Positions 56,480-64,000 of a stretch of DNA of 64,000 nt are shown in pieces. The translations under genes and the position numbers were made by a program. The notes under the pieces were generated by a model. It searched no databases and was not told the origin of the DNA. It was given only the letters and a program-made list of their open reading frames with translations. Source of the DNA: Elsinoe ampelina (lineage: Eukaryota); assembly GCA_010093995.1 (NCBI GenBank), contig ML992508.1, positions 778,506 through 842,505 on the forward strand, written 5' to 3'. The stretch's first letter is position 1, and every line of letters begins with the position of its first letter.

Positions 56480-56988
56480 GATTGCGTGGAGGTATGGCCC
56501 CGTCCTTGCACTCACCTTGGGAGGAATCCTGGTAGTCACAGCGGAGGATGACCTAGCTTTGTTGCTTTATATGTATTACGTCCTCATCACTTGGCCTCAA
56601 TTTGACTTCTCAGGTCTATTCGTGCTTATCGGTAGGGAAATCAGTGGGGGCAGAGATGCTGATCATTCGCCAGCAAGGAGAAGGTGAGGCAGGGGTGGGG
56701 TTGGCAAGACTTCGCTGCCCCAAGTTGCAACTCTTTCACCGTCGTGCAGCCGGAGGGTTCCGCCAAAACAGTCAAAACCGTCAAAACGCTCAAACCCAGG
56801 GTTTATTACTACACTACCTTTTTGCGCACTAACTACACCACCTAATACAATAATTACTATTGCAATTAACAGCTCTTATGGCCCTCTATCGATTAATGTA
56901 AGTTTTATTATCTTATTATATATATTTATTATTTTATAGCTTAGTGTTATATAAAAATTAGATATAGTAGTTCTCTATACCTTCCTTC

Positions 56989-57451
56989 TATCACGAACCG
57001 TCCAAACACAGCCTACGCTAGTGGTCTAAGCTAAGCTAAGAACGAGGTAGTTCTACTTCTATAGTAGTATAGCACTAAGGTAAGAGTTAAAGAAGATATA
57101 TCTTATAGATAATAAAGTACAATTAGATAGTATTATAAGGGCCAGCCTTAGCAATACTAGTGTTTGCTATCTAGACGAGGTTAACTATAGTACTTATATA
57201 AGGTAAGGACTACTCTTATATATATATATTCTTCCCTATATACTCTATATACTCTATATACTTTATAGCGAGAGTTAGGGGCAATATAGAGTATACGTCC
57301 GCTAGTAACCTATGTGCTCTATAGTCCCTAAGGTAGAGCCGCTAGAGAAGATAGAGAACTAGGTAAACGTCAGGCTAGGTTACGTAATAACCTTAGTAGT
57401 TTAATTAGTCCTAATGTCTCTATACTTTAGCTGTCCTACTAGTTTGTAATA
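56989..57451 (-). repeat. 3' LTR (463 bp) of the Gypsy element
   Basis: Starts TATCACGAAC (from TGTCACGAAC) and ends GTTTGTAATA (RIP'd GTTCGTGACA), giving a 10-bp terminal inverted repeat. Adjacent TTACTCTTCTCCCTT is the polypurine tract on the minus strand. Confidence 0.85.
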
Positions 57452-57525
57452 TTACTCTTCTCCCTTAATTAAGTTATTCTAATAAGTAAGTATCCTTTCT
57501 TGTCCTTATGCGCTATATACTAAAC

Positions 57526-58060
57526 ATGTCTCCTAGTTATTAAAGGTATAGTAAATCTAGTATATCTATACGAAAGAACCTCTCGGAGTTTATTAAATTA
57601 TTTAGAACTAACATGCTATAAGCTTACTCTCGTTGTAAGTCGAAAGGGCTAGACTATAAAGTCTACGTTTAGTTAGGTATTTATAGCTAGTATGTCGCGA
57701 GTAACTACTTGAGTTATAATATTTAGGTAATAAAATCGAAATAGTAGCGTCTCTAGTCTAAGTATATTCGTTTACGAAAGGAATTAGTTATAGCTAAGAC
57801 TACTAGAAAGAAAGCTAAAGAAGCTTATAAAAAGGTAAAAGAGGCTTATTAAAGAGCTATAGGCGATAAGCTTTGCCTACGTAAAGAGATATAAAAGTTA
57901 GAGAATAAGGCGAAGAAAGTAATCTCTCTAGAGAAGACTCGTATTTAAGTCCTAGAGTAGAAGAAAATACTATTGTTAGTAGATCTTGTCCTACTATAGG
58001 ACTAGTAATTATTTATGTCTAACTCTAACTAGGGTTCTCTATTTAGCAACGATTAAGGTG
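57526..58060 (+). pseudogene. RIP-degraded antisense ORF in the retrotransposon: Zn(II)2Cys6-like cluster plus coiled coil
   Basis: One frame from ATG 57526 with the pattern Y-x2-C-x6-Y-x8-Y-x2-Y-x7-Y, where every Y codon is TAT/TAC (one G>A from TGT/TGC). A K/E/A/R heptad-rich segment follows. All stops read (to about 57960) are TAA/TAG; the 3' limit is approximate. Confidence 0.65.
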
Positions 58061-58099
58061 CTTCTATTAGCTAAGCGATCTTCCTTAGGCATTCTTATT

Positions 58100-61000
58100 T
58101 TTGTTTAGTGTTAGGAGTGCTAGGTCTATCTAGTTAGTTCGCTTAATAAGGGGTTCTTAATCTAGTAGTCTAGAATTACTTACGAGGTAAGGTGTTCTTT
58201 TAGTTCCTATGTTGCCTTACTATACTAATGTCCTTTCTAGTAGATAAGATAGTAACGTTTTCCCCTTATAGATTTATAACATAAAATTCTTTTAATCTTG
58301 TACTATAGCTTCTATGTTTCTTTATCTAGTTCGATAGGTCCGGGTATAGCGTTCTATAGTGCTTTCTCTAGTAGTAATATATAAAAGACTAGATAGATCC
58401 TTATATGTCTTAGTAGTTCTAGTTTATATACGTTCTTATTTTTCTTTTCTAGGATCTTAAAGAGTCCTAGTTTAGTATAGTTAAGTTTCTTACTTAGTTA
58501 TTTTGTTTTAATATTTCTACTAAGGAGGTAAACTTTCTCTCTCTCCTATAGAATTAGTTCTGCAATTCTCTTCTAGTTAGCAAAATCTACTATTCTTTGT
58601 AATATAAATACTATATCGTAATATAGCTAGTTATATAGTTTCTTAATATTAGCTACTAGTATATTAGCGTCCTTAGATATTAGCTTAATTCTAAGTATGT
58701 TATAGTATAGATCTAGGTGTATTCTATAGTTTATATAGAATAGTAAAATTCTATTTGCTAACTTTCTATTATTAATAGCGAGCTCTATAAGTAGTAATAG
58801 TATCGCCTATAAGTCTTGCTTATAATTTAGGTAGCATCGTAGGTACTACTCTAGTACTTAATTTGCCCGTTTAGTTTGTCCGTCCGTTTATAGATAAAAG
58901 AAGGTTAATAGCTTATGTTTAACTCCTAGTAGGTCTATAAATAATTACTAGAATTATAACGTAAATAGCTTATCTCTGTTAGTTATTAGGTCTCGTAGTA
59001 CTCTATGTTATAAAATAATTATTTAGAGGAAGGTAAAGGCTATATCCTCGGTAGTTACTATTGTCTTATATAGTATAAAGTAGTAATACTTCGTAAACTT
59101 ATCTACTAGGACTAGGATACTATTATACTTTATACCTATAAGAGGTTCTTCTAATAGTAGTAAAGGTCCTATAAAGTCTATCGTAACTAATTACTATAGT
59201 TTATCTAGTGGTAGTAAGGGTTATAATAGACTATATAGCTTATATCGTAAGTGCTTAGACTTATAGTATATATCGTATATAGCGATATATATCTTAATAT
59301 CGTTTCGGAGTTCTTTCTATAGGTAGTTTTATATAATAAGTTTAATAGTCTTATTAATCCCGCTATGTCCCGCCGTTAGGTTATTATAGTATATTTAAAT
59401 AACTTCTTTCTTCTGTTCTTACGTAAGCTCCTAGGTAAGGCTATATAACTACTCTATCTTCGGGTGCTTATAGACTAGAGCGCTGTCTTACTACTTTAGT
59501 ATAGAGGCCTCTATTATTGTTATATTCTTTAAGTAATCTAGTCGTCGGCTAAGAGCGTCTACTCTACTATTCTCTAATTCCTTAATATAGTAGATCTAAA
59601 AGTTATAGCTTATAAGTGTTTCTAACTATCGTACTTGTCGTCTATTAAGAACCTTAGTTATTGTCTAATATAATAGGTTCTTATAGTCGGTGTAGACTTG
59701 TATAGGTAAGGTTGTTCCTTCTAGGTATACTCTCTATTCGCGGAATGCCTCTATAATTGTAAGTAACTCCTTATTATATATGTCGTAGTTAAGTTTAGGT
59801 CCGGTTATTTTTCGTAAGTAGTATACGATTAGGTAGCGTTATTCTTCTACGTCCTTCTATACTAGACACGCTTCTATTATAAAGTCTAAGGCATCCGTTT
59901 CTAGTAGTGCTTATTAGTCTAGGTCGAAGAGTACTAGAATAAGTACTATTATAAGTCTAAGCTTTAGCTCCTTAAAGGCCTACCTATATTTCTTATCGAA
60001 GACAAATCTAGTTTCTTTCTTTATAAGGTTAGATATTAGCGTAGCTACCTTAGAGAATCCTTTAACAAACTTATAGTAGTAGTTAAAGAACCCTAGTAGC
60101 GCTTAAACCTCCTTAACTATTATAGGTTCCGGCTAGTTATTTACTAACTCGATCTTCTTTAGATTAGGTCCGATGCTATTAGTAGATATAACATAGCCTA
60201 GAAATTATATCTTATACTTATAGAACTTATACTTAGAGAGTTTTACTAGTAGGTCTTTCTCTTTTAGTTTCTATAGTACTTTATAAATATGTCCTACATG
60301 TTTATTGTACGTCTTTAAGAAGATAATAATATTATCTAAATATGCTAAGACAAAGTTATTAAGGTGTTCTTGTAGAGTATTATTAATTAACTCTTAGAAG
60401 GTTATAGGAGCGTTAGTTAGCCTAAAGAGTATAACGAGGTACTTATATAGGCTCTATTATATTCTAAAAGCTATCTTCTACTCCTTACTCTTCTTTATTT
60501 ATACTTAATAATAGGCATCTCTAATGTTAATTACGGTAAACTATTTAGCTCTAAGTAGTTAGTCTTAAAGTTCGTTAATCCTTAGTAGGGGATAGTAATT
60601 CTTCCTAGTAAGTGTATTAAGTTTCTAGTAATTAATATATATTTATAACGTTCTATTCTTTTTAGGTGTAAAAAGCACTCCGTATGTAATAGGTAATTTT
60701 AATAGTTGTATAAATCCTTTAAGTAAGTGCTTATTAATATAGTTCTTAAGGATATTCTCCTCTTGTTTCGATAGTAGTATAAGACCTTAATAGTGTATCG
60801 GGGATTTACTCTCTTTAAAGAGTATTTTGTAATTCTATAGTTTATATTAGAGTAAGGCTATAATGCCTTTCCTTTCTTTAAATAAGTCCTCGAAGTCTTT
60901 ATATTCCGGCGGAAGTGCTTAGTCACTTACGCTAGTAATAGCCCTAACTATTAGTCGTACCTATACTATCCTTATAGTTAGTATCTATAGAGCTAATTAT

Positions 61001-63434
61001 ACTCTCTACGTTCTATAATTACACTTAGGAAATTCGAGTGTTTCTTTAATCTAGTCTACGTCTAGATTATGTTATTAAAGCTAGTCTATACTAAGTACTA
61101 TATTGTACTATATATCTACTATATCGATTAATTATTTTTCTATATGTGTTTCAATTTTAATTATAACATTTTATAGTTCCTAAGTAACTTTCCCGTTCTT
61201 CCCTATAGGGGTTCTATCCGCTATAGTAAGTAGGTAAGGTAACTCCTTCTAGTGTTAATAAGGTTTAAGCTAATTAGTAACTATTATAGAGACGTAGCTA
61301 TAGTTAGCTCCCGAATCTATTATTACTCTTACTTTACTCTCTTATATCTCGACTTCTAGTATAAAGTAGTTTAACGTATAGATCTTTATTATACTAAGAC
61401 TTTAGCTAGTGTTATTGTCTTGCCTTATTAGGCAACAACTAGCTAGTTTTTTGTTATTATAGCTCCTTAGATAAGTAGCTAATCCCTTCCTATACGTATC
61501 TACTATTAGTACTATATCTATTAGGTAAGTTGTATCTTGTCGCTACTTAATATAGTAAGGTAAACTTCTAGCGCCTAAGTCCCTTAGTAACTATAAAGTC
61601 CAATAATTCCCTACTAGTTACACTAAGTAGTATTATACACCCATATAAGTATAACTATTCCTTCCAGGTATAGCTAGGCGTTAGTATTAAAGACAAAAAC
61701 AAGTTATATAGATTTATCTTGTTGTGTCCTATTCTAGTAGTAGGTGTATATTATTATATAATTCCTCTATATCCCTATAAGGTATGCTTTAAGTCGTCTA
61801 CCTAGTAGTAGTACGTCGTTGTTGTTATTGTTGTTATTAGATAAGTCCTTATCTATATTATTACATTATAGTTACTCGGTGTATTCTTCGTTGTATTTCT
61901 CTTCTTCGCTACTGCCCCTAGTATAGTTATAGTTAGTAAGGCTATACTAAGTATATTCTCTTACTTAGCTATAGGGGATAGTACTACCTATTTTAATTAC
62001 TAAGAAGTCTATAGTGTATTTAAGACTAATAGCGTCTTCTCTAAGTACGTCGTGTAAGTAGATAGTATAGTACTATTCGTAATCTAGATTTATACATTTC
62101 TAGAGCGATATATAATATACCTTTCCTTATAGTATACTATAAGAGCTAAAGGTAAGACTACTATATTATTGTATAGCACTTGCGTCCTAATACTTCGTCT
62201 TAATAATCGTATATTAGTAATTATTACTAACTATCTTCTAAGGTTAGTTACTATTACTACTAATTATAGAGAGCTCTTCTAGGTTAGGTTCCTAGTCTAG
62301 CTATTTCGTTAGTTGCCTACGCTTAGATAGCTTATATAGGAACTAACTAGATCCCTACTTATCTAATAAGTAAATATAATAAGAGTTATTATAATATACT
62401 ATCTATAATAGTGTTACGTGTTAGCTTTATTATTTACTATTAGTTATAGAGATGTTAAGTATAATATCTAGAGAGGATTCTACTACCTCTCGAGTTATTA
62501 TAGACTTCTTCTATGTTTTCTTGCCTATACTAAAGGTCGTTAGGTCTTCTATAGTAGTGTCGGCCTTTTTTTCTACTAGCCCGGCAACTATTATATATAA
62601 TTCATCGGCTAGCGCCCCTTACTAGTAGTCCCTAGCCTAATACCTAGGTCTTTTATACTTAAAACATAGGTTGTCTCGTCTATACTTCTCTCTCTCTTTT
62701 CTACTAAGGAACTTTCCTCTATAGCCGCGGCCTTATATCTATAAGGGGTAGCCTTCGCATATAGTATTAAGTTCTATAGAGTCTCTATAGTTTCGAGAGG
62801 AACGTGTATATCTAGTGTTTACCTTATATCCTCCGCGACGTTCTATATGTCGTTTATAAAGTTAGTTATTAATAGCAATTATAGTATCTACTAGTTCTTA
62901 GAGGCTATTAGGCGGCTCGGGTATTATTTAGTCTTTAACCGAGTTACTTAGTCCTTAGTAGAATACTAAATGTTTAGCACTATTATTCTAGTCTAGGTAT
63001 ATTACGAGTTATTAAAACTAGAAATAGTACTAGGCTATAGACCTACGTTGTTATAGTTGTTAAATCTTTGTCGTAGTAACGTGCTCCTTATTAGATACGT
63101 TAAAGACTTATTTAATCTTTGCCTAAAAGATGTTAAAGCTCTTAAAGATAGCCTTTGTATCTAGGCTTAGTTATCTATCTAGGTAGCTACTTATATAAGG
63201 CTCGAACTACCCGAAGGTAGCGCCTTTAAGGTATATCCCGGCATAGAGGACCTTTACTATGTCGTTAGCGTACTTGTCTCTCTCTAGGGCAAAGAAGGCT
63301 TTAAGTTAAACAAGAAAGTGCCTTAAGTAGGCGCGGTCTCTATAGAAGAGTTCTACTTCTAACTTAGGCTTGCTTTGTCTTTCTATACTAAAAGACCTTC
63401 TATGTTCGCCCGAGGTTAAACTAGTAGTAGACAT
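58100..63434 (-). pseudogene. Degenerate gag-pol of the Gypsy element
   Basis: De-RIP readable motifs: gag ATG 63434 ..FYGDRAHLRHFL; CCHC knuckle about 62630-62670; protease IDSGA about 61300; RT LYEYLVMPFGLTNAP and AYLDD about 60320-60450; RNase H ETDASD and NYDIHDKELL; integrase GHSG and QTDGQTER; HPVFHVSLLE; chromodomain YYLIHWKG..ATWEP about 58200-58290. Confidence 0.9.
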
Positions 63435-63550
63435 GTCGTTAATAGTAAGCTTTCCTAGCTTACTAGCGATTAAAGATGCTAATAGTAACTTAGAGCGAGA
63501 GTTACTTATTAACCTTATAGCGTGCTATACTATAGTAAGGGTAGTTAAAA

Positions 63551-64000
63551 TGTCACGAACTGTCTAAATATAGCCTACACTAGTAGTCTAAGCTAAGCTA
63601 AGAATAAGGTAGTTCTACTTCTATAGTAGTATAGCACTAAGGTAAGAGTTAGAGAAGGTATATCTTATAGATAATAAAGTACAATTAGATAGTATTATAA
63701 GGGCTAGCCTTAGCAATACTAGTGTTCGCTATCTAGACGAGGTTAACTATAGTACTTATATAAGGTAAGGACTGCTCCTATATACATATATTCTTCCCTA
63801 TGTACTCTATGTACTCTATACACTCTATAGCGAGAGTTAGGGGCAACATAGAGTATATATCTACTAGTAACCTACGTGCTCTATAGTCCCTAGAGTAGAG
63901 CTACTAGAGAAGATAGAGAACTAGGTAAACGTCGAGCTAGGTTACGTAATAACCTTAGTAGTTTAATTAGTCCTAACGTCCCTACGCTTTAGCTGTCCTA
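63551..64000 (-). repeat. 5' LTR of the Gypsy element (truncated by the window edge)
   Basis: Colinear with 56989-57438; the differences I checked are C/T or G/A transitions. Confidence 0.9.

Follow-up and report, generated by a model that had tools for sequence, protein, structure and literature searches.

The stretch of the Elsinoe ampelina genome considered here (64,000 nt; contig ML992508.1 of assembly GCA_010093995.1, positions 778,506 to 842,505 of the forward strand; hereafter the window, to which positions refer unless stated otherwise) changes character at ~56.9 kb, from where to the window end the G+C content falls from ~52% to ~30%. This AT-rich part (56991–64000, minus strand) is a Ty3/Gypsy retrotransposon degraded by repeat-induced point mutation (RIP), in which ~690 bp separate the end of pol (~58160) from the polypurine tract next to the 3′ long terminal repeat (LTR; Table 1). 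On the opposite strand of this spacer runs a frame starting from an ATG at 57526, which a first-pass annotation, made from the letters alone, had read as the fossil of an antisense gene for a Gal4-type binuclear zinc cluster (Zn2Cys6) followed by a coiled coil. Translation of 57526–58062 (+) reproduced the peptide given there letter for letter, and the start codon is indeed 75 bp away from the LTR edge (57451), as well as 59 nt from the polypurine tract. There is a good probability, on the evidence given below, that the frame is a RIP-killed copy of an accessory gene conserved among Ty3/Gypsy chromoviruses of ascomycetes. The window copy itself is dead and does nothing now.

Read with its stops as X, the frame returned nine matches at E ≤ 1e-3 (best 4.9e-12) in a full HMMER scan (phmmer) of 1.84 billion representative proteins, all of them 81–211 amino acids (aa) in length and aligned to query residues 7–154. 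A word-based protein search with the same query gave 47 candidates, none at E ≤ 0.1, and no Pfam family matched the X-read frame. The intact family consists of proteins of 175–213 aa; against an alignment of 36 members, the window frame scored a probability of 99.0% in hhalign (E 6.5e-18, 170 columns), and BLASTP against the corresponding gene of an intact relative (locus L004) gave 2e-18. Homology is traceable to ~58041, and the original stop of the fossil gene probably lay a little past 58062. The six codons at the proposed cysteine positions (TAC at 57625, TGT at 57634, and TAT at 57655, 57682, 57691 and 57715) specify Y34, C37, Y44, Y53, Y56 and Y64, which align to six cysteines that are invariant in 36 of 36 family members, just as the first-pass annotation had predicted from the tyrosines; Y47 aligns to a histidine kept in 35 of the 36. 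Compared with the family in this way, five of the six window cysteines are shown to have been lost, by all appearances through G>A changes. Across the 44 columns conserved in at least 80% of members, the window was identical in 18, differed by a C>T/G>A-reachable change in 19 and was otherwise different in seven. When the codons of the frame were permuted 5000 times, identical or RIP-reachable columns averaged 7.8 and never exceeded 19, as against 37 observed, an excess over chance explained by homology to the family.

Copies of the element elsewhere in the same organism offered a further view of its former state. Two DNA runs contained 5162 and 3327 element pieces in contigs, with nearly all differences being transitions. 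Among the variable places listed (40 of 349), the majority letters of other copies at 57913, 57934 and 58018 give E, E and P, restoring the AEEAI and VEE motifs of the family and the SMP motif seen in L004; the five second-base sites of the tyrosines lie outside these 40 places. Independently RIP-damaged relatives, with Tyr at the Cys positions, were found among the database matches (P0007, P0009) and the metagenome loci (L060, L051, L048). We also noticed RIP-like fossils with Tyr-for-Cys replacements and many stops in other genomes (L060, G+C 0.33; L041, L042 and L049, 0.39–0.43; L051, 0.42), which suggests the state of the window copy to be a common fate of this gene family. Taken together, the family comprises 61 metagenome loci and 103 further proteins; members with a named source come from Sporormia, Elsinoe and Hortaea, and Ascomycota is the group in which the nearest Atlas clusters (122, 62 and 140 members) occur most often.

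The description of the window frame as one continuous frame holds insofar as it is present as read, but its continuity carries no weight alone, since its 17 stops in 179 codons (0.095) correspond to the stop density of the spacer's six frames (0.091–0.119). Through RIP, the gene is entirely hidden from callers of open reading frames (ORFs), as had been anticipated. When Cys and Tyr were treated as equivalent, the Zn2Cys6 spacing occurred once in the spacer (57450–58180) as compared to a mean of 0.004 in dinucleotide shuffles (0.4% of 1000 had one), and twice in the six frames of 56900–64000 as compared to a mean of 0.21 (2.7% of 300 dinucleotide shuffles reached two); as the Cys/Tyr pattern was chosen post hoc, these statistics apply to a pattern already seen. 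The second match (61850–61945, plus strand) lies antisense to gag or protease and is probably a chance occurrence.

Table 1. The probable fossil antisense gene and the features of its carrier element in the window.
Feature	Position	Strand	Basis or remark
Probable fossil antisense accessory gene	57526..58062	+	17 stops; 5 of 6 Cys now Tyr; phmmer, hhalign and BLASTP homology
Six-cysteine cluster region	57625..57717	+	Y34, C37, Y44, Y53, Y56, Y64; Y47 on the family's nearly invariant His
Motif N-I-stop-V-I-K-S-K-stop-stop-R-L, then long-helix (coiled-coil) region	57718..57975	+	Alignment to the family
3′ LTR	56991..57451	-	LTR alignment; a promoter of the antisense gene would have to sit here, read backwards
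Polypurine tract, AAGGGAGAAGAG on the element sense strand	57455..57466	-	Read from the sequence; same layout in intact relatives
pol (protease, RT, RNase H, integrase, SH3, chromodomain-like end), RIP-degraded	58160..61299	-	Domain matches given in the text
gag region, RIP-degraded	61300..63398	-	Retrotrans_gag E 2.8e-4, at residues 80-151 in the X-read frame that ends at 63398
5′ LTR	63553..64000	-	Cut by the window end, ~13 nt of its start missing; aligns with 56991-57438

As for the carrier element, a 300-nt core is 93% identical between the 5′ and 3′ LTRs, and the differences between the two are transitions only, the mark of RIP. With stops read as X, window pol matched the Pfam models RVT_1 (4e-14), RT_RNaseH (1.5e-18), Integrase_H2C2 (5e-6) and SH3_Tf2-1 (1.6e-7), and was 51.5% identical to the intact pol of L004 over 1040 aa. 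The Chromo model found no match in the mutated pol of the window and one at 3e-18 in that of L004. The window element has the chromovirus order of protease, reverse transcriptase, RNase H and integrase (PR-RT-RH-INT) with flanking LTRs, the chromodomain itself being seen in relatives. Its LTR edge reads GTAATA (57446–57451), that of the relatives GTAACA. Past the end of the 3′ LTR, AT-rich, RIP-like DNA extends for another ~190 bp (56800–56990) before host sequence of normal G+C content begins, and may be the remnant of another repeat.

Relatives of the fossil gene occupy the same place in intact elements. Metagenome contigs, when scanned with the family alignment, yielded 61 loci, 37 of which contain an intact ORF of at least 150 aa (35 distinct sequences). 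Among the 45 loci with at least 500 bp of downstream flank, 43 have a Gypsy pol that runs convergently towards the antisense gene from the other strand, its C-terminal part lying no more than 300 bp away, a position that the first-pass annotation had made a check of its reading. All ten neighboring ORFs scanned were of Gypsy origin, namely nine pol (PR-RT-RH-INT-SH3-Chromo or the C-terminal part thereof) and one gag. The antisense gene and pol overlap tail-to-tail in 24 of 27 elements (median 77 bp, range –9 to 185). In nearly every element, the ATG is preceded in turn by the LTR edge, a CTA and the complement of the polypurine tract, 27–97 nt from the start codon, a layout that the window shares with its 59 nt. 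The two exceptions among the 45 loci, L006 and L007, are one sequence filed twice and lack pol; there, the gene, the tract and a hairpin lie between 330-bp direct repeats that are 95% identical and ~2.1 kb apart, an arrangement that, from its sequence, is an internally deleted LTR-gene-LTR derivative that retained the antisense gene. This ~2.4-kb element (L007:9551–11964) encodes a C-terminally shortened protein (P0008) without gag-pol and has AT-rich flanks, with a host MIF4G/MA3 gene ~3.7 kb upstream. Four further contigs of 6.5–7.4 kb (L019, L030, L033, L027) end in exact terminal repeats of 127–174 nt (e.g. 239–366 equals 7145–7272 in L027), and are each one element unit closed on itself, for which collapsed LTRs, tandem copies and one-LTR circles are all possible explanations.

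In loci from L001 to L052, the 20–30 nt that separate the tract complement from the antisense ATG contain a hairpin (e.g. L005:186–205, L013:3300–3316, L020:4633–4650). A per-sequence stem search found an unbroken stem of at least 6 bp in 27 of 32 distinct sequences vs. 19% of mononucleotide shuffles. Most loops read TCC(T/C), and 23 different 5′ arms occur, indicating that the stems co-vary. On the element sense RNA, the loop would be purine-rich and located directly 5′ of the tract. RNAalifold predicted no pairs for this hairpin, which is explained by the variable loop length placing the 3′ arms out of register.

The gene is under selection for its product. Among 435 pairs from 30 intact genes, all six with a proportion of synonymous differences (pS) between 0.05 and 0.6 had low ratios of nonsynonymous to synonymous change (dN/dS; 0.03, 0.10, 0.15, 0.10, 0.09 and 0.15), indicating purifying selection on the antisense protein. 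Homology, position, orientation and purifying selection all support the first-pass proposal that this element family encodes an accessory antisense protein.

Read from its start, the protein of ~190 aa comprises an N-terminal helix, a six-cysteine cluster that is basic, has Gal4-type spacing and includes an invariant histidine, a helix of ~85 residues and a conserved tail. Family members start with MP..SST.RR..L..FI..FG..M, followed by the cluster (C-x2-C-x6-C-[KR]VH[VL]RSG.C-x2-C-x6-8-C) and the motif [DN][IV][RKQ][VI]T.SE[WF].RL, which agrees with the D-I-Q-V-T-K-S-E-W-Q-R-L that the first-pass annotation had restored from the window by reversing RIP; the long helical region ends in RA.EAIAVEE and the tail reads LALSP.TW...FW. 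AlphaFold2, run on the 36-member alignment, modeled the member P0001 with a mean predicted local distance difference test score (pLDDT) of 82.9, placing helices at residues 17–31 and 75–159 and, within a compact cluster region, short ones at 40–45 and 59–63, the latter two starting at the two C-x2-C pairs. The 75–159 helix (pLDDT 94–99 over most of its length) corresponds to the coiled coil expected after the cluster.

How far does the cluster resemble that of Gal4? The Zn2Cys6 spacing (C-x2-C-x6-C-x5-12-C-x2-C-x6-8-C) fits 35 of 36 members, L052 having x8 between the second and third cysteine, and the cluster is basic (K+R 3–9 vs. D+E 0–3). A Foldseek search of 350,542 PDB chains, with the full as well as the domain-only model, returned Zn2Cys6 DNA-binding domains at each of the first 24 ranks, namely Leu3, Hap1, Gal4, Pho7, Ppr1, Put3, Lac9, AlcR and chains of the kinetochore complex CBF3 (presumably Cep3). 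Among 48,161 chains in the VIA fold search, eight reached Z ≥ 2, four of which are Zn2Cys6 domains (Z 2.0–2.3); the values for individual factors were Z 2.3–2.8 for Ppr1, 2.1 for Pho7 (1.9 Å over 35 residues), 2.0 for Lac9 (2.2 Å over 33 residues) and 2.0 for Gal4. In UniRef, two members (P0054 and P0076), which come from Sporormia fimetaria and Elsinoe australis, bear the automatic label 'Zn(2)-C6 fungal-type domain-containing protein'; the third named member is from Hortaea werneckii. Other automatic names, assigned by JGI to P0013, P0034, P0060, P0104, P0106, P0120 and P0127, are misleading (AcrA membrane-fusion protein, chromosome segregation ATPase, galactokinase, YdcH/DUF465, siderophore synthetase component, TOPRIM nuclease), probably owing to the coiled coil. 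A search of the window for a host Zn2Cys6 gene that could provide a comparison profile found none.

A homodimer of residues 30–165 was predicted in the presence of four zinc ions, scoring 0.50 in three runs, while the best of three controls reached 0.00; the contacts agreed to at least 84%, with a partner pLDDT of 77 or more. In calibration, this dimer mark was reached by 21 of 30 solved pairs formed by one chain and 0 of 23 single chains from microbes, and by 17 of 29 pairs from eukaryotes, albeit only one of seven without an older solved relative; the calibration set contained no small molecules, whereas the present prediction included zinc. The predicted contacts are antiparallel (e.g. 123 with 88, 130 with 81, 109 with 109), with paired positions summing to ~211, and cluster residues 37, 51, 56 and 71–73 lie in the interface. 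Judged from these models, the protein rather likely dimerizes through its long helix, the predicted orientation being antiparallel.

Several observations weigh against reading the gene as a chromovirus-borne factor of the Gal4 type. No member reaches the Pfam gathering cut-off of 21 bits for PF00172 (Zn_clus), which matches eight of 36 members at E ≤ 1 (best 0.0053; scores shown 12.1, 11.2 and 11.8 bits), and two other families, DUF5651 (11 of 36) and DUF3716 (4 of 36), both likewise below cut-off, score at least as high as PF00172. The Foldseek matches have E values of only 0.31–5 (best 0.57 and 0.31), which is not significant, and all VIA Z-scores are ≤ 2.8, i.e. within the chance range. A sequence profile search of the PDB yielded nothing significant and ranked a zinc-ribbon ribosomal protein (E 0.12) above Lac9 (0.54) and Leu3 (0.7). 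Three features depart from Gal4, namely the invariant histidine, the helix at the N-terminus and the antiparallel pairing in the predicted dimer. Over 231 pairs, the gene and pol did not diverge in step: the Spearman coefficient was 0.10, a value attained in 442 of 2000 Mantel permutations, and the Pearson coefficient 0.38; in the closest pairs, gene and pol C-terminus track each other (0.99/1.00, 0.97/0.95, 0.90/0.94, 0.84/0.90). This comparison speaks neither for nor against strict co-inheritance at depth. Of the Gal4-type cluster proposed by the first-pass annotation, the spacing has stood up, with the profile matches below cut-off and the fold matches not significant. On sequence and model evidence, the domain is Zn2Cys6-like and not a demonstrated member of PF00172, and the cluster would probably be a true binuclear domain that binds two zinc ions in the manner of Zn2Cys6.

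What could such a protein do for its element? In intact elements, the antisense gene fills the gap between the pol end and the polypurine tract on the strand opposite to gag-pol. With only 27–97 nt between LTR edge and ATG, the 3′ LTR, read backwards, would have to supply its promoter, unless the gene depends on read-through from outside. The transcript would end inside the 3′ end of pol, and the product would be a small, basic, zinc-binding dimer. By analogy to the antisense factor HBZ of human T-cell leukemia virus type 1 (HTLV-1), we tentatively propose that the antisense transcript might arise from the 3′ LTR and that the protein might act in the nucleus, binding DNA and regulating how the element itself is expressed or integrates. 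It is possible, yet we hold it doubtful, that ascomycete chromoviruses would carry their own Zn2Cys6-type factor, expressed backwards from the 3′ LTR, which would bind the LTR or selected sites in the genome and thereby govern the element's transcription, its integration or its escape from silencing. If true, host genomes might also acquire zinc-cluster regulators from these mobile elements.

An element-borne protein that is not a transcription factor, and instead binds RNA or complementary DNA, tethers integrase or chromatin, or blocks host silencing, is an explanation for which we see some room, although we would not expect it to prevail. Formal Zn2Cys6 membership is wanting, the predicted antiparallel dimer would place the clusters at opposite ends rather than together on one DNA site, cluster residues are located in the predicted interface, and the conserved N-terminal helix and C-terminal motif are specific to the family; yet a strongly basic cluster, nearest solved folds that are DNA-binding domains without exception, and the automatic Zn(2)-C6 name of two members speak against it. 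Far less probable is the capture of a fragment of a host Zn2Cys6 transcription factor gene by this one element family (transduction). Cysteine spacing and fold do resemble host Zn2Cys6 domains, and capture of host genes by LTR elements is known to occur, having been discussed, and doubted, for plant antisense ORFs in the relevant part of a review (PMC7264820). However, the gene has the same place and the same tract-adjacent start in elements whose pol C-termini are only ~58% identical on average, it is under purifying selection, and a search unrestricted as to length returned matches of 81–211 aa exclusively, with no long host factor turning up. A very old host capture is possible.

It is still less credible that only the antisense RNA matters, e.g. 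by forming double-stranded RNA with the pol 3′ end in the control of silencing, and that the reading frame is incidental. Convergent transcripts would indeed pair where the ORFs overlap tail-to-tail (24 of 27 elements), and a double-stranded RNA role is one proposal made for plant antisense ORFs in the same review (PMC7264820). But dN/dS values of 0.03–0.15, six cysteines invariant across 36 members, a confident predicted fold (pLDDT 82.9) and a frame that is open and conserved at the amino acid level across lineages argue for selection on the protein, with which a role of the RNA could coexist. Finally, the notion that Tyr-rich, stop-rich RIP-mutated DNA mimics a cysteine motif, to which the abundance of Tyr in the element (8.7% of six-frame codons), the second Cys/Tyr match at 61850 and the ordinary stop density of the frame might lend credit, is refuted by the phmmer, permutation, BLASTP and hhalign statistics to the point of near-certainty.

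The antisense family, then, is real, widespread and essentially unannotated; repeat annotators miss it due to the absence of a Pfam model and the wrong automatic JGI names. According to the part of a review devoted to them, the functions of LTR-retrotransposon antisense genes are unknown, and none has been described as clearly similar to another protein (PMC7264820). A widespread family under purifying selection, whose nearest domain relatives bind DNA, provides a way into this question, which a single small protein makes directly testable.

Antisense accessory genes as such are known from LTR retrotransposons, and the statement of the first-pass annotation that canonical Ty3/Gypsy elements encode only gag-pol overlooks the antisense brtn gene of Botrytis Boty elements as well as the plant aORF-3R. 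The original study of brtn is said to be that of Zhao et al. 2011 (Virology 417:248). Citing papers describe brtn (protein BRTN) as an antisense gene of Boty-like Gypsy elements in Botrytis cinerea and Sclerotinia (PMC8365987, PMC4227169, PMC7264820, each as far as the respective passages go), and a Monilinia transcript is mentioned elsewhere as matching both truncated Pol and BRTN (PMC5987419, in the passage concerned), which fits a tail-to-tail arrangement. The present family resembles BRTN in being an extra antisense gene of a fungal chromodomain Gypsy element located between pol and the 3′ LTR; it differs in that the passages of the citing papers ascribe no zinc cluster to BRTN, a comparison made by description only and not by sequence. 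No database match to the family bears the BRTN name. The literature searched contained no report of a zinc-cluster antisense retrotransposon gene, and within it, with BRTN compared by description only, what seems new is that a recognizable Zn2Cys6-like cluster is combined with a coiled coil, and that the combination extends so widely among the chromoviruses of ascomycetes.

The plant aORF-3R genes (gene23 of maize Grande, rice RIRE2, ORF4 of Silene Retand and ORF2 of Phaseolus PvRetro13) are likewise situated in antisense between pol and the 3′ LTR and kept in most copies; in the sections of the review that treat them, their function is given as unknown, and some of their products as nuclear (PMC7264820). 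The fungal gene shares both traits, as it lies on the opposite strand between pol and the 3′ LTR in the window and in 43 of 45 relatives, and is kept in most copies (intact ORFs in 37 of 61 loci) and conserved (low dN/dS). The plant genes, however, belong to non-chromovirus lineages and are described in those sections without clear similarity to other proteins (PMC7264820), whereas the fungal family has a recognizable six-cysteine cluster.

With the Gal4-type Zn(2)-Cys(6) factors (Gal4, Ppr1, Hap1, Leu3, Put3, Pho7, Lac9), the family shares the spacing C-x2-C-x6-C-x8-C-x2-C-x6-8-C, short helices at both C-x2-C pairs, a basic domain and a long helix thereafter, and these factors are its nearest solved folds. 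Unlike them, it remains below the Pfam cut-off, carries an invariant histidine three residues after the third cysteine, has an N-terminal helix packed before the cluster, and, at 175–213 aa, contains neither a middle-homology nor an activation region; it is predicted to form an antiparallel dimer, whereas that of Gal4 is parallel, and it is encoded by a retrotransposon. A precedent for the proposed role comes from HTLV-1, whose HBZ, a dimerizing DNA-binding-type factor of the basic leucine zipper (bZIP) kind, has its gene on the antisense strand, under transcription from the 3′ LTR, and modulates transcription from the 5′ LTR. HBZ is a bZIP protein of a human retrovirus without sequence or fold relation to the antisense family, and the parallel would be functional only; if it holds true, the gene fossilized in the window would have been the fungal retrotransposon counterpart of this retroviral antisense factor.

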